Positions 429 to 47,992 of a stretch of DNA of 64,000 nt are shown one piece after another; position 1 is the stretch's first letter, and each line of letters begins with the position of its first letter. The stretch is taken from positions 226,577 through 290,576 of the forward strand of contig JACPEJ010000001.1 in assembly GCA_016183565.1 (NCBI GenBank), in the 5' to 3' direction. A model generated the notes under the pieces. That model did not search any database. It saw only the letters and a program-made list of their open reading frames with translations, and was not told the origin of the DNA. Position numbers and translations under genes: made by a program. This DNA is from Candidatus Blackburnbacteria bacterium. GTDB taxonomy: Bacteria; Patescibacteriota; Microgenomatia; UBA8517; UBA10165.

Positions 429-1721
429 ATGAGGGTGGGGAAAATTTTTGTTGCTTTAGCCTCCTTTTTTTCTATCTTCTTTTTGTCTGCTTCGGCTTTT
501 GCTTCAGAACTTGCGCCTTCTGCAAAACCTCTGATTGTTCCCCCTGGAGACAATATCTTCTTTGGTCAAAGTCACTACTATACTGTTGTTTTTAGAAATA
601 ATGGTGAAGCGGTTGTTTACTCCAAGTTTGTTTTGGTAAACCCAGAGGAGAGTTCTCTTTCAACCTTTAGTTTTGAGGTTCCAAAGGTAGTACCAAGCGA
701 TCTTGTTATTTTTCAGCAAAAGCTTAGGGGTTATTGTTTAAGATATGATCCTGTGGACTCTGTAAAGTGTATTGAGGAGCAAGAACCTGATTACCGAAAT
801 TACTATTATGGGCAGGGTGCACAATATCAGAAGATTCAATATGAGAAGATAGGAAATACTTACAAGTTTGATCTACCGGATCCTGTGAATCCAAACACAA
901 CAGGTGCTTTAATTATTGCATATATTGCGAAAGGGTATGCCAAGGAAGAGTTGGGTGCTTTTAAATTCGATTTTGAGACACTTAAAGTTGATTCGAGAAT
1001 TGAGTCTGTTCGTGTTGCTGTTGATGTTGACAGTGATTTGTATCTTAAAGGCAAAAAGGCGAGTGTAAATTATACGGAGTCTACTGTGGCTTCTATTGCT
1101 GAGTTTGAATCCAGTGTTGGAGTAGTAGATAGGGTTGCGAGTCAGATTGGTTCGTATGGCGCTTTGGTTAAAGAATCAAAAGGTCTTGCTCCAAGTGAGA
1201 GTTTTAGTGTTCGTGGCGAATATTCTGATAGTTTGTTTAAACTTTATTTGAGATCTATTGGTTTGTCGGTGGCAATAATTGCTGCGATAATTTTTGTGCT
1301 AGTTTTGTTTAAGAGAGTTTTTGCTAGGATCGGTGATTGGATTAGTAGCTATGGGGATTCAAAAGCAAATTCGTATGGTTTTTTGGGGATTCTTAACATA
1401 AGCATAGGGCTTTTGTCTGCTTTCTTGGCTTTGGGTTTGACTGTGGTTGTGGTTTTTATTCAAAGATCAAACTTTATTTCGTATGAACCGTTTATTACTC
1501 TTTTGGTTGTGGTGATTTTCGTTCTTCTATACTTCCTAGCATTGTTGGCCCCAGCTATTGCTTCGGCCATATCTCGTGGATGGAGATCTTTGTTGACTGT
1601 TTTGCTTTGGGAAACTATTTGGTTATTTGTTTTTGTGGTTTTGTATTTTTTGTTGTTTAAGTCAGGGCTTGATTATTCCAGGTATCCTAAAATTGTTCCT
1701 CAGGAAAGTGTTATAAAGTAG
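429..1721 (+). CDS. hypothetical secreted/membrane protein (N-terminal signal peptide, ~4 C-terminal TM helices)
   Basis: 434-aa ORF; MRVGKIFVALASFFSIFFLSASAFA looks like a signal peptide; hydrophobic helices at the C-terminus; start codon uncertain (TTG 417 or ATG 429). Confidence 0.6.
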   Translation: MRVGKIFVALASFFSIFFLSASAFASELAPSAKPLIVPPGDNIFFGQSHYYTVVFRNNGEAVVYSKFVLVNPEESSLSTFSFEVPKVVPSDLVIFQQKLRGYCLRYDPVDSVKCIEEQEPDYRNYYYGQGAQYQKIQYEKIGNTYKFDLPDPVNPNTTGALIIAYIAKGYAKEELGAFKFDFETLKVDSRIESVRVAVDVDSDLYLKGKKASVNYTESTVASIAEFESSVGVVDRVASQIGSYGALVKESKGLAPSESFSVRGEYSDSLFKLYLRSIGLSVAIIAAIIFVLVLFKRVFARIGDWISSYGDSKANSYGFLGILNISIGLLSAFLALGLTVVVVFIQRSNFISYEPFITLLVVVIFVLLYFLALLAPAIASAISRGWRSLLTVLLWETIWLFVFVVLYFLLFKSGLDYSRYPKIVPQESVIK

Positions 1722-1834
1722 CATATACTTCTTGAATTTGGTAGAATTTATTCAAGGGAGCGAAAGTCGCGTAGCTTACTCACGTGATGCAAGCCCCCGT
1801 TTTTGTGTTCAATATATCTTTTAGAAGGAATTAA

Positions 1835-3994
1835 ATGGCAGCAAAAAAAGGTGCGTTAATTACAACTACAACAGAGAACCGCAAGCTTCCGATGGAGCGG
1901 ATCCGCAATATTGGGATTATTGCACATATTGATGCTGGTAAAACTACAACAACTGAGCGGATTCTTTTTGAGTCAGGGAAGACTTATAAACTTGGATCGG
2001 TGGACGAGGGGTCAACTGTTACAGATTGGATGGAGCAGGAGAGAGAGCGTGGAATTACAATTGTTTCTGCTGCAATCACAACCTTCTGGTCTCCGAAGGT
2101 TAAAGGAGATGTTCCTGCCCAGTCCTACAGGATAAATATTATTGACACTCCGGGTCATATTGATTTTACGGTTGAGGTTGAGAGGTCTTTGCGTGTGCTT
2201 GATGGTGCTGTAATGATTTTTGACGGACGAACTGGGGTTGAGCCTCAATCGGAAACTGTTTGGCATCAGGCCCAAAAATATGGTGTTCCTAGGTTTTGTT
2301 CTCTTAATAAGCTTAATCTTATTGGTGCGGACTGGGCTGGGTCAATTGCCTCTATTCGGGAACGCTTAAGTCCAAATGCAGCTCCTTTGGATATGCCTAT
2401 TGGCATTGAGCATGGCTTTCATGGTGTTGTTGATCTTGTTGAGATGAAGGCTTATGTTTACAAGTCCCAGGAGGATAATCAACTGATAGAGGAAGATATT
2501 CCTGAAAATCTTAAAGATCAGGCTATGAAATATAGGAGTGAGCTTTTAGAAAGAGTTGCGGAATTTGACGATGAAGTACTTGAGAAGTATTTAGAAGGTC
2601 AGGAGTTGACTTCTCAGGAGATAAAAAGAGCAATAAGGAAAGGAACAATTGCTGGGAATTTTTTCCCAATTTTGGGGGGTGATAATCGGATGGCAACGGT
2701 TCAGCGTCTTTTGGATGGTATTGTGGAATATTTGCCTTCTCCTTTGGATATTCCTCCTGTTAAGGGGACTAATCCGGTTACGGGGGAGATAGAGGAGCGA
2801 AGACCCGAAGATGGTCAGCCCCTTGCGGCTCTTGCTTTCAAGATAAATGTTGATCCACATATAGGGCGTTTGGTGTGGCTTAGGATTTATTCCGGGACTG
2901 TAAAAGCTGGTTCTCTTGTTTATAACTCTACAAAAAGGGTTGGCGAGAGGGCGGGGAGATTGGTGCTTTTGCATGCAGATCAGCGGGAACTTATCGAGGA
3001 AGCTTATGCGGGAGAAATAGTTGCTGTTGTGGGACTTAAAGAAACTGTAACAGGAGATACTGTTTGTGAACAAGGTAAGCCAATACTTCTTGAGTCTATA
3101 AGTTTTCCAGAGCCGGTTATTTCTTTGGCAATTGAACCTAAAACTCGACAGGATCAAGAGAAACTTGGGTATGCTATGTCGCGGCTTGGGGAGGAGGATC
3201 CCACATTTAAAGTAAAGACGAACCACGAGACTGGCCAGACTATTATATCGGGGATGGGAGAATTACAACTTGAGGTTTTGGTTGATAGGATGAAGAGAGA
3301 GTTTAACGTAGAGGCGACTACAGGTGCACCTCAGGTTGCATACAGAGAGACGATTAAGAAAGCAGCTATGGGTGAAGGGAAATATATTCGTCAAACTGGG
3401 GGTCGTGGTCAGTATGGGCATTGTCTTTTGAGGGTTGAGCCAAAAGGTAGGGGAGAAGGGAGTGAATTTGTTTCTGAGATTAGGGGTGGTGCGATACCAC
3501 AGGAGTTTATTCCGGCTATAGAAAAAGGAGTTCGTGAGGCTATGGATAATGGGATTTTAGCTGGTTTTCCTTTAACGGATATGAAGGTGGCTGTTTACGA
3601 TGGTTCTTTCCATGATGTGGATTCTTCAGAAATAGCATTTAAGATAGCGGGTTCTATGGCGCTTCAAGCTGCTTCTAAAAAAGCGGAGTTAGTTCTTCTT
3701 GAGCCTATTATGAAGGTCTTTGTTTCAACACCGGACAATTTTATGGGGGATGTGATAGGGGATCTTTCTTCTCGGCGAGCTCAGATATTGGGGACAGAGA
3801 CAAGAGGTGTTTTGCAGGTTATAAACTCTTTAGTTCCCCTTTCGGAGATGTCTGGTTATGCAACAACTTTGCGTTCTATAACTCAAGGTCGTGCAAGTTA
3901 CTTTATGGAGCCAAGCCATTATCAGGAGGTTCCTTCTAATATAACCCAACAGATAGTTGGGAAATTGCAAGCTTCGGTTGCAGCGGTCAGATAG
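1835..3994 (+). CDS. fusA: elongation factor G
   Basis: AHIDAGKTTTTERIL, DTPGHIDF and full-length EF-G architecture (719 aa). Confidence 0.95.
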   Translation: MAAKKGALITTTTENRKLPMERIRNIGIIAHIDAGKTTTTERILFESGKTYKLGSVDEGSTVTDWMEQERERGITIVSAAITTFWSPKVKGDVPAQSYRINIIDTPGHIDFTVEVERSLRVLDGAVMIFDGRTGVEPQSETVWHQAQKYGVPRFCSLNKLNLIGADWAGSIASIRERLSPNAAPLDMPIGIEHGFHGVVDLVEMKAYVYKSQEDNQLIEEDIPENLKDQAMKYRSELLERVAEFDDEVLEKYLEGQELTSQEIKRAIRKGTIAGNFFPILGGDNRMATVQRLLDGIVEYLPSPLDIPPVKGTNPVTGEIEERRPEDGQPLAALAFKINVDPHIGRLVWLRIYSGTVKAGSLVYNSTKRVGERAGRLVLLHADQRELIEEAYAGEIVAVVGLKETVTGDTVCEQGKPILLESISFPEPVISLAIEPKTRQDQEKLGYAMSRLGEEDPTFKVKTNHETGQTIISGMGELQLEVLVDRMKREFNVEATTGAPQVAYRETIKKAAMGEGKYIRQTGGRGQYGHCLLRVEPKGRGEGSEFVSEIRGGAIPQEFIPAIEKGVREAMDNGILAGFPLTDMKVAVYDGSFHDVDSSEIAFKIAGSMALQAASKKAELVLLEPIMKVFVSTPDNFMGDVIGDLSSRRAQILGTETRGVLQVINSLVPLSEMSGYATTLRSITQGRASYFMEPSHYQEVPSNITQQIVGKLQASVAAVR

Positions 3995-4051
3995 ATACAG
4001 ATTGTTCCTTTGGGATTTTTTGTAGACAGGTTGGGGATTTTGATATGCCTA

Positions 4052-4080
4052 TTGACATAGTATTTAAGGCTCGTTACAAT
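4052..4080 (+). promoter_or_regulatory. sigma70-like promoter upstream of tuf (TTGACA-17nt-TACAAT)
   Basis: TTGACA at 4052-4057, 17-nt spacer, TACAAT at 4075-4080; a 7-bp stem-loop ggactag/ctagtcc follows at 4088-4107. Confidence 0.6.
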
Positions 4081-4246
4081 ATCCTCTGGACTAGTTGGAG
4101 CTAGTCCGTTTCTTGTCAGCCTGATCTTAGCATTCGTCTTCAGGTACTATTCGTACACGACTCATGCTGCGATCTTGGGCGGACTGCGAAAACTTGTATA
4201 CAAGTTTTCTTGTCTTTTTACGAGAGACACGTTATAATTTAGGAAA

Positions 4247-5437
4247 ATGGCAGAATCGAAATTTGAACGAACAAAACCACATATAAATGTTGGAACCATT
4301 GGTCATGTTGATCATGGTAAAACTACTCTTTCTGCAGCTATAACCCATGTATTGTCCAAACAACCTGGGAATTCTACAAAACCTCTAGGGTATGGTGATA
4401 TTGATAATGCTCCTGAAGAGAGAGAGCGCGGAGTTACAATTAACATTACCCATCTTGAATACGAGACTGAGAAGAGACACTATGCTCACATTGATGCTCC
4501 AGGTCATGCAGATTATATTAAGAATATGATTACTGGGGCAGCTCAGATGGATGGTGCTATTTTGGTAGTTTCTGCTCCAGATGGTGCGATGCCTCAAACC
4601 AGAGAACATGTTCTTTTAGCGCGACAAGTTAATGTGCCGGCTATTGTAGTTTTTCTTAATAAAACGGACATGGTTGACGATCCTGAACTTGTTGATCTTG
4701 TTGAAGTTGAAATTCGGGAGCTTCTTTCTAAATACCAATATCCAGGGGATGAAGTACCTATTGTTAGAGGTTCTGCACTTAAGGCTTTGGAAGGGGATGC
4801 TGAGGCAGAGAATCAAATTCTTGAGCTTATGAAGGCGGTTGATGAGTATATTCCAACTCCAGAGCGAGAAACCGAGAAGCCATTTTTGATGTCAGTTGAG
4901 GATGTTTTCTCTATAAAAGGTCGGGGAACTGTTGCAACTGGTCGTATAGAGCGCGGAAAAGTTAAGGTTAATGAGGAAACTGAGATTATAGGACTTAAGC
5001 CAACTAAAAAGACTGTTGTAACTGGTGTTGAGATGTTTAGGAAGTCTTTGGATGAAGGGCAAGCTGGGGATAACGTTGGTATTCTACTTCGCGGAATTGA
5101 AAAAGATGATATTGAGCGGGGTCAGGTTTTGGCAAAGCCGGGTAGTATTACTCCACATACTGAGTTTGAAGCAGAAGTTTATATTTTAACTAAAGAAGAG
5201 GGTGGTAGGCATACACCGTTCTTTTCAGGTTACAAGCCACAGTTTTATATAAGAACTACGGACGTTACCGGTGAGGTTACACTTCCTGAGGGTGTTGAGA
5301 TGGTTATGCCTGGGGATAGTGCAAAAATGAAGGTAAAGCTTATTCAACCGATTGCAATGGAAGAAGGTTTGAGGTTTGCTATTCGCGAAGGTGGAAGAAC
5401 TGTGGGAGCCGGGGTCCTTTCTAAGGTAATTGCCTAA
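4247..5437 (+). CDS. tuf: elongation factor Tu
   Basis: [22 protein letters not shown] motifs; 396 aa. Confidence 0.97.
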
Positions 5438-5464
5438 GGAAAGTTGACTCTAGGGTTTGCATTT

Positions 5465-5486
5465 CCCCCGAAAGGGGGTTTGTTTT
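5465..5486 (+). terminator. intrinsic terminator hairpin (cccccgaaaggggg + T-run) directly abutting the rpsJ start codon
   Basis: GC stem cccccg aa aggggg followed by tttgtttt, then ATG at 5487. Confidence 0.5.
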
Positions 5487-5798
5487 ATGGCAGGAGCTGC
5501 GAGGATTAGAATCCGTTTAAAATCTTACGATCATAGGGTCATTGATGAGGCGGCAGCAAAAATTGTTGATGCTGTTTTGGCTGCTGGTTCTAAAGTAGTG
5601 GGTCCGGTTCCTCTTCCGACAGAAAGACACCTAACTGTTGTTAATACTTCTCCTCATACAGACAAGGATGCGCGTGAGCACTTCGAGATGTTGGTGCACA
5701 AAAGAATGATTGATATAATTCAGCCAACAGAGCGAACAATTGACGCGCTTTCTAATATGGAACTTCCTGCAGGAGTTTCGATTGAAGTTAAAATTTAA
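5487..5798 (+). CDS. rpsJ: 30S ribosomal protein S10
   Basis: [23 protein letters not shown]...[12 protein letters not shown] is a typical S10. Confidence 0.92.
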
Positions 5799-6187
5799 TT
5801 GGTAGCTTTCCTATACACCATCAAACCTTCAATTTTTTCGAAATCTTTTGTATTTAGAGTTGCTAATTCAAGATCATGGCTTAAAGCAGTTGCTGCTATT
5901 ACCGCATCTACAATATTTGTGCCATAAGCTGCTCTTATTCGTCCTGCTTTTTTTGATATTTCCTCGTCCAATTGCAATATTTTTATGCCAGAAAAAAGAG
6001 TTTCAAGAGCAACTCTTGCCTTTTCTATTTCCCAGACACTTTTGCCAGCATAGCTTTCAGTGTGTGCCACAATGGAAGTATATAATTGATATTCTTTCTC
6101 CAGGAGATTATACAAAACGGTCTGACTTTTATCTTTTAGTCGTAGGTAGTCGATAATTATTGAAGAGTCCAGAAGTATTTTGGACAT
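5795..6187 (-). CDS. vapC: PIN-domain toxin VapC
   Basis: [11 protein letters not shown] ... [10 protein letters not shown] ... TLNTKDF shows the PIN acidic residue pattern; 1-nt spacing from the upstream antitoxin gene. Confidence 0.75.
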
Positions 6188-6188
6188 T

Positions 6189-6437
6189 TTACCAATTATA
6201 CCTTTTCGATCTTTCTTCAATTTCAGATCTCATTTTCCTGTAATCTTCGTAGTTTTTTTCTGTAAACCAGTCTGTTTTTAAGTTGATAATCTTTTGGGTA
6301 TAATCTTCAGAAGGCTTTTTTGTGCTAAGTTTTTCTCTGATCACAGCCGAAAGGCTCTTTCTTTTCCTAAAAGCCTCTTCTTTAAGACTTAAATAATCGT
6401 CTTCAGGCAATCTGATATTAGTGGTGATGTAGTTCAT
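6189..6437 (-). CDS. vapB: ribbon-helix-helix antitoxin (VapB/CopG-like)
   Basis: 82 aa; N-terminal TTNIRLPEDDYLSLKEEA is an RHH-type beta strand plus helix; operonic with the PIN toxin. Confidence 0.65.
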   Translation of the reverse strand: MNYITTNIRLPEDDYLSLKEEAFRKRKSLSAVIREKLSTKKPSEDYTQKIINLKTDWFTEKNYEDYRKMRSEIEERSKRYNW

Positions 6438-6565
6438 ATAACAATTGTATCATTGTATTACTTCTTGTCAAGTCTAGATGGTTGCTGTGTGTTTAGGTCG
6501 CGATACATACCGTACAGTTGTGTCTACGGCATACTTCCAGTTGCCAGGGTTAGAACTTGCGTTTC

Positions 6566-6594
6566 TTGCGCACTCCGTGCGTATTTGGTATACT
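6566..6594 (+). promoter_or_regulatory. sigma70-like promoter for the rplC operon (TTGCGC-17-TATACT)
   Basis: TTGCGC at 6566-6571, 17-nt spacer, TATACT at 6589-6594. Confidence 0.5.
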
Positions 6595-6660
6595 ACATAT
6601 TGTGGAGGTGGTTTTGAACCTTCTTTAGCACCAGTATTGCCAGAAAGGGCCCCTTGATTG

Positions 6661-6685
6661 GAGCGCTAGAAGGCGCTCTTTTTTG
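6661..6685 (+). terminator. leader terminator/attenuator hairpin 12 nt upstream of the rplC ATG
   Basis: gagcgc-tagaag-gcgctc stem-loop followed by ttttttg. Confidence 0.5.
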
Positions 6686-6696
6686 TGGAAAAACAT

Positions 6697-7452
6697 ATGC
6701 TAAATACTGTATTGGGAACAAAGCAAGGAATGAAGCAGATTTTTACTCGCGAAGGGGTAAGGTTGTCTGTGACTGTGGTTCAAGGTGGACCGAATGTTGT
6801 CACATATTTACGAACTCAAGACAAGGATGGCTATTGGGCGGTTCAGCTTGGGTTTGGAAGCCGAAGAATGAAAACCATCAAGAAGCCAGTTTTGGGACAT
6901 CTTAAGAAAGGACTTGTCCATACAACTTTGGAAGAACCACAAAAATATCCACGATTCCTCAAAGAAGTTAGAATATTATCCACAGAAGAAACAACATTAC
7001 AACTAGGAGATAGGATCAGTCCTACTGATGTTCTCAAGGCTGGGGATATTGTTCAGGTTACTGGGGTTTCGAAAGGTAAAGGTTTTGCAGGGGGAGTTAA
7101 AAGATGGGGTTTTCACGGTGGGCCGAAGACACATGGACAGTCTGATAGACATAGGGCTCCAGGTTCGATAGGTCAGGCTACAACTCCGGGACGGGTTTAT
7201 AAGGGTAAGAAGATGGCAGGGAGAATGGGGAGTGATCAGAAGACTATTAAAAATCTTGTAGTATTGAGTGTTTTGGAGACGGGTGAGATAGAACTTTCTG
7301 GTCCGGTTCCGGGAAGCAGGGGGTCTTTTTTGCAAATTAAAAAGATTGGAGAGGTAAAGACACCGTACGAGTTAGTTTCCACGAGGAGAGATACAGACAC
7401 AGATACAGAGACAGAGGAAAAGTCGGAAGTTGTAGGAGGGAAGGAGGCTTAA
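6697..7452 (+). CDS. rplC: 50S ribosomal protein L3 (with an acidic TDTDTETEE C-terminal tail)
   Basis: LGTKQGMKQIFTREG...FHGGPKTHGQSDRHRAPGSIG. Confidence 0.93.
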   Translation: MLNTVLGTKQGMKQIFTREGVRLSVTVVQGGPNVVTYLRTQDKDGYWAVQLGFGSRRMKTIKKPVLGHLKKGLVHTTLEEPQKYPRFLKEVRILSTEETTLQLGDRISPTDVLKAGDIVQVTGVSKGKGFAGGVKRWGFHGGPKTHGQSDRHRAPGSIGQATTPGRVYKGKKMAGRMGSDQKTIKNLVVLSVLETGEIELSGPVPGSRGSFLQIKKIGEVKTPYELVSTRRDTDTDTETEEKSEVVGGKEA

Positions 7453-23397: not shown

Positions 23398-23468
23398 CGG
23401 GGAATAGTTTAACGGCAGAATGCGCCCATGGGGTGGGTGTGGTAGGTGTTCAATTCACCTTTCCCCGA
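23398..23468 (+). tRNA. tRNA-Pro (anticodon GGG), 71 nt, CCA not encoded
   Basis: hand-folded: perfect 7-bp acceptor stem cggggaa/ttccccg with the C1:G72 pair and A73 typical of bacterial tRNA-Pro; U8; D-loop with GG; anticodon stem cgccc/gggtg; loop aUGGGGu with U33 and G37; T-stem aggtg/cacct; T-loop TTCAATT. Confidence 0.8.
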
Positions 23469-46551: not shown

Positions 46552-46866
46552 ATGGCTACCTTTAGTTTGAGGGGTATTGTTGGTTTTGAATGGGATAAAG
46601 GAAACATTTCTCATATAGCAAAGCACAATGTTGCACCAAGAGAGTCTGAAGATGTGTTTTTCGATAAGAATAATGTGTTGGATGAGGATTTGAAACATTC
46701 GGTGGGAGAACAGCGTTTTTTAATCATCGGAAAAACGAAAAGGGGAAGAATTTTATATCAAATATTTACCGTAAGGGGAGGCAAGATTAGAGTTGTCTCG
46801 TCGCGAGATATTAACAAGAAGGAGGTGAGCTTGTATGAAAAAAAAGTTGATAATTCCAAAATTTAA
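46552..46866 (+). CDS. brnT: BrnT-family ribonuclease toxin (DUF497)
   Basis: FEWDKGNISHIAKHNVAPRESEDVF ... RFLIIGKTKRGRILYQIFTVRGGKIRVVSSRDINKKE. Confidence 0.75.
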   Translation: MATFSLRGIVGFEWDKGNISHIAKHNVAPRESEDVFFDKNNVLDEDLKHSVGEQRFLIIGKTKRGRILYQIFTVRGGKIRVVSSRDINKKEVSLYEKKVDNSKI

Positions 46867-47098
46867 GAGTGAGTCGGAAGAATCCAGATTTTGGGCTAAT
46901 CTTGATTTAATGGAATATTTTGAACCTTCTGATTTTAGAAGGGGAGTTGTGTTTCCGCAATTAAAGCGGAGCAAGCGCCTCGTTTCAATTCGCCTTCCTG
47001 ATGAATTAATAGTTAGAGTTAAAGATAAAGCTAGTAAGCTTGAAGTGCCATATCAAAGTCTTATACGTAGGTATATTCAGCAGGGAGTAGCTAGATAA
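46835..47098 (+). CDS. brnA: BrnA-family antitoxin (RHH/CopG-like)
   Basis: SESEESRFWANLDLMEYFE...SIRLPDELIVRVKDKASKLEVPYQSLIRRYI. Confidence 0.7.
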   Translation: MKKKLIIPKFKSESEESRFWANLDLMEYFEPSDFRRGVVFPQLKRSKRLVSIRLPDELIVRVKDKASKLEVPYQSLIRRYIQQGVAR

Positions 47099-47319
47099 AA
47101 GTTCTTTTGTTCAGGGGCAAGTGAGGTTGAAAGGAAACTTGAGCAATAACCCTGCAGTTTAGTTAGTGGTAGGCCCGAGTTCTCAAAACGATCGCAACAC
47201 CTTAAGGGTTAATTTTTAGGTATCATCACCTCCATGGGAATTAGAATGGAGGTGAGTAAAATACCAAAGTATAGAAAGCTGGTTAAGGAGGATAGGATAC
47301 TGATTGCTCAATGTAGAGA

Positions 47320-47430
47320 CAATGGTTTGTTGCAGCACTTCTTGTTGGTACAGTGTCAGGTACTTACTCATCTCCATTTGTCGCAGTCCCGCTTTTGGTG
47401 ATGTGGGAGAAAATTAAGAGGAGGGTTTAG
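47320..47430 (+). pseudogene. duplicated 3'-terminal fragment of secF (~110 nt, 2 mismatches over the first 92 nt)
   Basis: aatggtttgttgcagcacttcttgttggtaca...gtcccgcttttggtgatgtggga also occurs at 46331-46440 as the genuine secF end. Confidence 0.85.
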
Positions 47431-47668
47431 CAAATGTTTTTTAGTGATTTTGTTGCAGTTTATTCAATTTTATACTTTAAGGTAATCTGAACACTACACT
47501 CCTACGTAGGAGTGTAGTGTCTAATACGCTCATACATATGGATATTATTAAAATTATTGGTGTTATGTTTCGAAACATTGGAACTTAAAACTCAGGATTT
47601 AGAACATGGAGTAGGAATATTTGATTGGTCATTGATATCATGATTCGAATCATGATATCAAATATGAT

Positions 47669-47992
47669 TTACATTAACTGGAAACGGATTATTTTCAAGG
47701 GTGTGGTTTTGTTGATGTCGCAGTTATAGTAATGGGAGTAAGTTTCATACATTTTTTTATCGTTTTTGAAGGATTCGTGTCCATCTTTGTCTTCTTTTGT
47801 TAGTTTACCGAAAGTTGTTTGTTTGACTGAAGTGATTTTTGCTTTTGCAAATTCTTTTAGTGTTTCTCTATTGACCAAACTTAGTTTGTCATCTTCTGTT
47901 AGATTTTTGTCGTCGAAGAGCCGCCATGTGGAAGTTTTAGAACCATTAAGGATAATAGGGACTAATTCTGGGCTAAACTTTAGTATTTTCAT
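47669..47992 (-). CDS. ASCH-domain protein
   Basis: IILNGSKTSTWRL...GDKL pattern. Confidence 0.45.
   Translation of the reverse strand: MKILKFSPELVPIILNGSKTSTWRLFDDKNLTEDDKLSLVNRETLKEFAKAKITSVKQTTFGKLTKEDKDGHESFKNDKKMYETYSHYYNCDINKTTPLKIIRFQLM

Follow-up and report, generated by a model that had tools for sequence, protein, structure and literature searches.

In most bacteria, rpsJ and rplC, which encode the ribosomal proteins S10 and L3, are adjacent and co-transcribed, and in cyanobacteria and plastids the placement of S10 is similar to that in archaea. The archaeal S10 gene stands after that of EF-1a, apart from L3-L4-L23 (PMC10833476). Small multigene insertions have been described at the operon junctions of the str-S10-spc-alpha supercluster, one example being the bfd-bfr-hopD genes that separate str from S10 in Salmonella (Brandis et al. 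2019, PMC6735719), and only Gammaproteobacteria are known to carry the L4/S10 leader of E. coli (PMC3616713). In the present work, we examine the rpsJ-rplC junction in a stretch of 64,000 nucleotides from a Candidatus Blackburnbacteria bacterium (GenBank assembly GCA_016183565.1, contig JACPEJ010000001.1, positions 226,577 to 290,576 of the forward strand), called the window below, where a VapBC toxin-antitoxin (TA) pair lies on the minus strand between the two genes. With a probability of roughly 0.8, this is an ordinary VapBC that occupies a pre-existing gap between two transcription units and does not lie inside an operon.

The nearest relatives of the window are Candidatus Blackburnbacteria, which belong to the Microgenomates within the candidate phyla radiation (CPR/Patescibacteria), with identities of about 90% for EF-Tu (tblastn), 87-88% for S10 and 60% for L3. 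The locus resembles the known supercluster insertions (PMC6735719) in that the accessory genes stand between units and not within them, with the rest of the cluster colinear. It differs from the Salmonella case in that the Microgenomates junction is located one gene further, at rpsJ/rplC and not at tufA/rpsJ, and in that its cargo varies strongly throughout a whole superphylum of the CPR, with a retroelement cassette and members of several TA families among it. The archaeal arrangement is resembled in that rpsJ travels with the tuf/str unit and rplC heads its own cluster. Unlike in archaea, where these genes are dispersed, the Microgenomates units stay neighbours, 0.07-4.7 kb apart.

In the window, rpsJ (5487-5798, plus strand; NCBIfam S10 equivalog, 135 bits; stop codon TAA at 5796-5798) and rplC (6697-7452, plus strand; L3_bact, 219 bits) are separated by a gap of 898 bp, which contains two opposite-strand genes and a promoter. 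According to the list of open reading frames (ORFs), the only genes in between are vapC (5795-6187, minus strand), encoding a 130-residue PIN-domain toxin with its ATG start at 6187, and vapB (6189-6437, minus strand), encoding an 82-residue antitoxin with its stop codon TAA at 6191-6189. Downstream, rplC is followed by rplD, rplW, rplB and further genes, and the ribosomal protein cluster continues unbroken on the plus strand up to about 17.3 kb, past secY and an ORF of the size of adk, so that the rpsJ/rplC junction is its only interruption. The gene calls and Pfam labels up to L14 were taken from an identical contig (L001), while the genes beyond L14 were named by ORF order and size only. 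The canonical S10 operon, with rpsJ directly followed by rplC in a single unit, is thus not what the window holds. The same layout is found on independent Logan contigs from the runs SRR12113430 and SRR12113384, which brings the independent assemblies with this layout to three, and the exact VapC and VapB proteins are recorded on a 686-kb contig under NCBI Ca. Blackburnbacteria names. In an NCBI metagenome-assembled genome of Ca. Blackburnbacteria, VapC is labelled 'VapC family toxin' and VapB 'hypothetical'.

Relatives were sampled via L3, which gave 160 rplC loci from 80 species-representative genomes and 80 metagenome contigs, and the gap statistics refer to the 109 unique loci in which both rpsJ and rplC are present. 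The shortest distance between the two genes is 69 bp and the longest 4745 bp, the median being 799 bp; 33 of these loci have less than 200 bp and 47 have at least 1 kb. In a first subset of 66 loci with both genes, the median was about 1 kb. At six further loci, rpsJ is not found within more than 3 kb upstream of rplC. A first-pass annotation of the window had taken S10 and L3 to be neighbours almost universally. As the gap is variable and often occupied, this premise fails in the present lineage.

On clustering, the gap ORFs turn out to be mainly singletons. By Pfam, the TA-type cargo includes HicA, HicB-like/UPF0150, Gp49 (HigB-like) with a helix-turn-helix protein, YafQ, CopG_antitoxin (BrnA-type), DUF433, DUF5678 and Fic/Doc, and the housekeeping-type cargo includes FtsJ methyltransferase, epimerase, peptide deformylase, histidine phosphatase, NUDIX, MGMT and others. 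A reverse transcriptase together with bAvd is also found in the gaps, and this cassette looks like a diversity-generating retroelement. The cargo of the nearest relatives is different in each case, namely HicA on the minus strand (L003), a BrnA-type antitoxin (L004), and a DUF5678 pair with the reverse transcriptase and bAvd (L021). On the basis of these comparisons, the junction is a recurrent insertion site and an old operon boundary in this lineage.

Two observations on individual cargo can be added here. At L021, the region between rpsJ and rplC (1078-4765) encodes a bAvd-like protein, a reverse transcriptase that is split, and two paralogues of 270-330 residues without Pfam match, a third paralogue of which is present at L003; a DUF5678 and aspartyl-protease-like pair adjoins this cassette. 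Furthermore, five Woesebacteria loci (L006, L009, L017, L029 and L038) share the same two gap proteins, the minus-strand one having about 290 residues and the plus-strand one about 327, which means that some junction cargo is inherited within subclades. The FtsJ-like methyltransferase and NAD-epimerase Pfam matches, with five members each, are probably these two proteins.

The arrangement that we propose is the following. The genes from tuf to rpsJ would form one transcription unit that ends at rpsJ, and rplC would open a second, long ribosomal protein unit with a conserved promoter and with modulation at an attenuator-type leader. The stretch from the rpsJ stop codon to the rplC promoter would tolerate insertions, and would have been filled repeatedly with unrelated accessory genes in different species. 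In the window, vapBC would fill this empty interval between the two units, with its reading direction toward rpsJ and away from the rplC promoter. Both genes would be read from one sigma-70-type promoter on the minus strand, probably as a leaderless transcript and probably under autorepression.

The TA module itself was characterized at the level of both proteins. VapC matches the PIN family PF01850 with 67.2 bits at a cutoff of 23.6, and its best solved relatives in the PDB search are VapC toxins, the closest one being VapC 7by2 (E 6.5e-9). All four acidic residues, D7, E44, D94 and D115, align with the catalytic residues of 7by2. The protein is full length compared to more than 50 homologues, and homologues with 48-68% identity occur in other CPR contigs, in unrelated neighbourhoods. 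It matches VapC-family NCBIfam models, all under the equivalog cutoffs, and the cutoffs for tRNA(fMet)-specific VapC are missed (NCBIfam NF047863 / PRK13725, 48.8 bits vs 140 and 31 vs 143).

VapB has more than 100 homologues, relative to which it is full length, and RHH_1, the ribbon-helix-helix (RHH) family, is matched by 38 of the 43 homologues sampled. In the AlphaFold2 model (pLDDT 76), a strand-helix-helix leads into two helices at the C-terminus, and the ribbon-helix-helix occupies residues ~3-37 at the N-terminus. Its top Foldseek neighbours are all RHH proteins (CdbA, AtaR, TacA, M. tuberculosis VapB, CopG and Arc), each at E > 0.1, and the VapB family profile gave no match to PDB sequences. 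At the family level, VapB is an RHH antitoxin, and its C-terminal helical region is expected to bind the toxin. The two genes are also found side by side elsewhere: at L084, a homologous VapB-VapC pair abuts with a 0-nt spacer, and homologous pairs are adjacent in other CPR contigs. Related VapCs pair either with an RHH-type VapB or with an antitoxin having an AbrB/MazE-type N-terminus, the C-terminal region being common to both. As a side observation, a comparison of L086 (4700-5020) with the window (6189-6437) reveals a swap of the DNA-binding N-terminus of the antitoxin with retention of the C-terminal ...LLtvKgsWFs..d... segment, which is presumably the toxin-binding part.

A promoter-like site for vapBC is located at 6438-6471 on the minus strand, with the -35 element TTGACA at 6471-6466, a 16-nt spacer, and TGaTACAAT with the -10 at 6449-6444. 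In the promoter scan, it matches at 11 of 12 positions and has in addition the TG. Since the -10 is just 6 nt from the vapB ATG, the vapBC mRNA is probably leaderless. TACAAT occurs twice (6457-6452 and 6449-6444), and the palindrome ACAATTGT at 6448-6441 overlaps the -10. The repeats and the palindrome are candidate operator half-sites for an RHH protein, and VapB or VapBC would probably autorepress its own promoter.

The module thus has much in common with characterized VapBCs (M. tuberculosis VapBC 5x3t; Shigella/Salmonella VapC 3tnd): the antitoxin-then-toxin order, here with a spacer of 1 nt between the vapB stop codon (6191-6189) and the vapC ATG (6187-6185), a PIN fold with four acidic residues, an antitoxin with RHH N-terminus and C-terminal helical tail, and a palindrome with repeats over the -10 of the promoter. 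Unlike the named VapBCs, its VapB family is CPR-specific and its VapC falls below the tRNA(fMet)-specific equivalog cutoff. Judged by its sequence, vapBC is an intact type II module of the canonical kind, with a small RHH antitoxin gene ahead of one for a PIN-domain RNase toxin. It displays the testable defining features of this class, and the pair itself is ordinary. The PIN score, the RHH family evidence and the layout agree with the first-pass annotation, which had called a minus-strand PIN and RHH VapBC between rpsJ and rplC.

With regard to its origin, neither vapB nor vapC has a homologue at any of the 160 related rplC loci, and the GC content of vapBC is 34.2% vs a window median of 41.4%, which is the 0.9th percentile of same-size windows. 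These results are in line with the earlier suggestion of a recent mobile acquisition, and the scattering of VapC homologues over unrelated neighbourhoods also fits a mobile module. The comparison of the junction in related genomes, which had been proposed as a check, did not reveal the opposite situation, in which all relatives share the same insertion. In sequence terms, vapBC looks like a low-GC, horizontally acquired, species-specific and recent-looking occupant of the gap.

A different explanation for the position of the pair is that it is wired to ribosomal protein expression. Convergent transcription of tuf-rpsJ would in that case give antisense RNA or polymerase collisions over vapC, and the toxin output would depend on it. 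Several features of the locus point in this direction. rpsJ and vapC have overlapping stop codons within TTAA (5795-5798), neither strand has a terminator-like site between the two 3' ends, so that some read-through both ways is likely, and the toxin gene is the one nearest rpsJ. As vapC is promoter-distal, convergent read-through would fall mainly on it, and the overlapping 3' ends may lead to antisense interplay. However, the orientation of the cargo in the relatives has no preference, with 83 ORFs on the plus strand and 75 on the minus strand (36 and 27, respectively, for the first ORF after rpsJ). The VapBC homologues occur in unrelated neighbourhoods, and tight gene packing is usual in small CPR genomes. 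We therefore consider the wiring scenario to be unlikely, and the occupation of a pre-existing gap by vapBC remains the preferred reading.

The rplC promoter is located at 6566-6594 on the plus strand, with the -35 element TTGCGC at 6566-6571, a 17-nt spacer and the extended -10 TGgTATACT at 6586-6594. The generic promoter scan missed it because only three of the six -35 positions match. It is followed by a conserved leader (6600-6687, plus strand), in which the invariant UGGAGG is found at 6603-6608 and a terminator-like hairpin at 6660-6679 with a T-run at 6680-6684 (GGAGCGCU-AGAA-GGCGCUCU followed by U5). The end of the -10 is separated by 7 nt from the GTG GAG GTG... that starts at 6602, which is followed after about 50 nt by the hairpin and U5, and after another 12 nt by the rplC ATG. 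The hairpin has a folding energy of -12.8 kcal/mol (z -2.95) and it alone stands out, the energy of the whole leader in the window being unremarkable (z -0.44). An annotated ORF of 59 residues on the public Logan contig L001 (window 6478-6657, plus strand), which spans the promoter and the leader and has no Pfam match, is probably a gene-calling artefact.

The TTGCG...TGATATAAT arrangement of the promoter is kept in relatives, and the promoter, the GGAGG motif and the hairpin recur with the same order and spacing. A survey of the 220 nt upstream of rplC in 132 unique loci, with shuffled sequences as control, found the terminator-like hairpin in 106 loci (8 when shuffled) and the extended -10 in 90 (4 when shuffled). 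These frequencies are independent of the gap size, and the promoter and the leader are also present at insert-free loci with gaps as short as about 120-150 bp. A covariance model called R1, trained on 30 rplC leaders, was searched against the 160 loci (1.2 Mb, both strands). At E <= 0.1 it gave 84 matches, all of which are plus-strand and stand immediately before rplC, with none elsewhere; loci with a gap of no more than about 140 bp are among them. The window leader is matched with 52 bits (E 2e-8). When the leaders were aligned with the model, 99% of the cells in the terminator helix were paired and 29 showed compensatory (double) changes, and the covariation score of the helix was reached by none of 500 shuffles.

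The median distance from the hairpin to the ATG in the relatives is about 20 nt. As only 10-60 nt lie between the U-run and the start codon, transcripts of rplC have to run through the hairpin. The general layout of an attenuator leader is indeed found, that is, a promoter, a hairpin with U-run and the first cistron, with no room for another promoter. The anatomy of the rplC leader is thus that of an attenuator and not of a simple terminator, and attenuation itself would be the expected behaviour.

These data can be compared with the proposal of the first-pass annotation that the TA insertion split the S10 operon and forced it to be rewired. A contiguous ancestral rpsJ-rplC operon would then have been interrupted by the TA pair, and a new promoter and leader hairpin would have restored the expression of rplC. 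This would fit the adjacency of rpsJ and rplC that is usual in most bacteria, and a promoter and a terminator-like hairpin do stand just upstream of rplC in the window (6566-6684). However, both elements are conserved across Microgenomates whatever the gap size, including the insert-free relatives, and the leader is present at 84 of the 160 loci with compensatory changes in its helix. In addition, the junction is variable lineage-wide, and the nearest relatives hold other cargo there. The elements that had been described are hence real, but the comparison indicates that they are ancestral and not new, which makes a split of the operon by vapBC very improbable. Still less credible is a decaying remnant, a mis-called ORF pair or an assembly chimera, for while VapB alone scores under the Pfam threshold and VapC under the NCBIfam equivalog cutoffs, both ORFs are full length with the catalytic residues intact and the genes coupled by the 1-nt spacer, and the identical sequence appears in independent assemblies of two runs and the proteins on the 686-kb contig.

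A number of points weigh against the reading of an ordinary VapBC in a pre-existing gap. Of the HMM searches that had been suggested as a check, the one for PIN was positive, whereas the one for RHH was negative for the window protein itself (RHH_1, 16.9 bits vs a threshold of 20.5) and positive only for its family. The scan recognized no intrinsic terminator for vapBC on the minus strand, and none for rpsJ on the plus strand ahead of the leader, which leaves some room for a functional antisense relation of rpsJ and vapC. The unit boundaries, the use of the promoters, and termination or read-through at 6660-6684 are all predicted from the sequence. At vapBC, there is no integrase or transposase gene, no tRNA target, and no flanking direct or inverted repeats beyond chance-level matches, and these missing hallmarks of a mobile element leave the arrival of the pair unexplained. 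Finally, apart from identical contigs, no relative above 60% L3 identity was found in the GTDB species genomes or the JGI metagenomes. The nearest sequenced relatives (60% for L3, 87-88% for S10) are too distant to give the age of the insertion or its precise ends.

Like the E. coli S10-operon leader, which acts by L4-mediated attenuation and translational repression, the rplC leader has a promoter-proximal terminator hairpin with a U-run ahead of an L3/L4/L23/L2 operon. It differs in that it stands before rplC and not before rpsJ, in its length of about 90 nt vs 172 nt, in the absence of sequence or Rfam similarity, and in having a conserved 5' start codon and a mini-ORF. Rfam 15 gave no match at gathering score for ribosomal protein leaders in the window, and none of relevance at E <= 10 in 3900-7000. 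The literature searched describes no ribosomal protein leader for Microgenomates or CPR, and nothing specific was found there on the rpsJ/rplC split, on ribosomal leaders or on VapC in CPR.

We have also considered whether the leader could form alternative structures. In the window, 6619-6633 and 6659-6673, the latter comprising the terminator 5' arm and loop, can pair as an inverted repeat with 73% complementarity, and in a Woesebacteria-like group a conserved AGGAuGUGCC pairs with GGyGCCUCC. Over 43 distinct sequences, this pairing is formed in 80% of cases, vs 76% in shuffled sequences and 36-58% when slid, with 14 double-change cells. In folds of truncated leaders, the terminator 5' arm pairs with upstream sequence, and in a Levy/Daviesbacteria-type group the predicted minimum free energy fold has an alternative helix, to which the loop and the 3' arm of the terminator contribute instead. 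The antiterminator is thus a candidate with modest support.

At the 5' end, the predicted fold contains a hairpin (P1) between GGAGGU at 6604-6609 and ACCUUC at 6618-6623 on the plus strand. Its covariation as a fixed-register hairpin is no better than that of shuffles, since the part of GGAGGUGAU that pairs with ACCUC, ACCAC or AUCACC varies among lineages. Another option considered was that GGAGGUGAU serves as the Shine-Dalgarno (SD) sequence of a downstream start, and this was rejected because no start codon is found at SD spacing. A start codon is located 2 nt upstream of GGAGG, and in the window it opens a candidate mini-ORF from GTG at 6602 to TAG at 6628 (plus strand), MEVVLNLL. An ATG or GTG lies 7-15 nt past the -10 in 64 of the 65 loci with a clear -10, and opens an ORF of 5-14 codons that starts M-x-V-V/I; the same test in downstream windows gave 2-52%. 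Depending on the lineage, the start codon is at an in-frame offset of 3, 6 or 9 nt from the invariant GUG.

This pattern suggests a near-leaderless leader peptide and ribosome-mediated attenuation, although a ribosomal protein effector is equally possible, and the mini-ORF pattern could reflect a constraint at the RNA level instead of a peptide. A tentative extension, which we regard as possible but not as probable, is that the leader is an undescribed Microgenomates cis-regulatory RNA of about 90 nt, near-leaderless, in which a mini-ORF and a terminator/antiterminator switch would couple transcription of the main ribosomal protein operon to translation or ribosome availability, or to a ribosomal protein such as L4, next to a boundary that acts as a landing pad.

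On the other side of the junction, fusA (1835-3994) and tuf (4247-5437; assigned from the ORF and tblastn) precede rpsJ on the plus strand. Most relatives have 13-70 nt between tuf and rpsJ, and the two genes are expected to be co-transcribed, with tuf as the first and rpsJ as the last gene of the unit. Within the spacer of the window, a terminator-like CCCCC-GAAA-GGGGG hairpin with the tail UUUGUUUU is located at 5465-5478, the U-rich tail extending to 5486 (plus strand; -11.8 kcal/mol, z -2.0). Its GGGGG arm (5474-5478) ends 8 nt before the rpsJ ATG and may at the same time be an SD that the hairpin sequesters. Of 95 related loci, 22 have a comparable hairpin, chiefly those of close relatives. 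The first-pass annotation had correctly located this hairpin near the rpsJ ATG, but it does not bracket the TA pair, as it sits between tuf and rpsJ. In many relatives (L005-L059, e.g. L022, L025 and L030), a GCAC(A/C)TTAA(CC) motif is present 5-15 nt before the rpsJ start, with no obvious SD.

Upstream of tuf, the promoter scan found two promoter-like sites on the plus strand, at 4052-4080 (TTGACA-17-TACAAT) and 4210-4238 (TTGTCT-17-TATAAT). Two terminator-like hairpins (4087-4108 and 4188-4209) are interleaved with them in the fusA-tuf spacer, which suggests a further regulated boundary ahead of tuf.

Elsewhere in the window, a second type II TA is found on the plus strand at 46552-47098, where BrnT (PF04365, 66 bits) overlaps BrnA/CopG_antitoxin (PF12441, 78 bits). 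Next to it, an ORF-poor, low-GC stretch of about 570 bp (47100-47670) lies between convergent genes. It has no Rfam match and contains a perfect 10-bp inverted repeat (TCACCTCCAT at 47246-47255, ATGGAGGTGA at 47226-47235, minus strand), and it may be a non-coding RNA or a gene remnant. A possible second copy of the leader at 47191-47237 was not accepted, with only 13 bits to R1 (E 0.42). The nearest tRNA gene, tRNA-Pro at 23398, is the sole match of the tRNA/tmRNA scan.

The TA module adds little in itself, as VapBC pairs are among the commonest bacterial genes. The rplC leader, which is apparently undescribed, is together with the boundary and its variable cargo apparently of more interest than the TA pair. 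In Microgenomates, the textbook S10 operon does not begin with rpsJ, and the boundary acts as a recurrent insertion site. Phylogenomic pipelines often presume a contiguous block of 16 ribosomal protein genes and are affected by this boundary, and the leader region is prone to mis-annotation by gene callers, as with the 59-residue ORF in the public assembly of the same sequence. The conserved unit of promoter, leader and hairpin is a candidate regulator of ribosomal protein synthesis in a major uncultured radiation. If the tentative reading of the leader is true, the hard operon boundary that it sets after rpsJ would have become a landing pad throughout the lineage, at which TA modules, other accessory genes and a diversity-generating retroelement are captured again and again.

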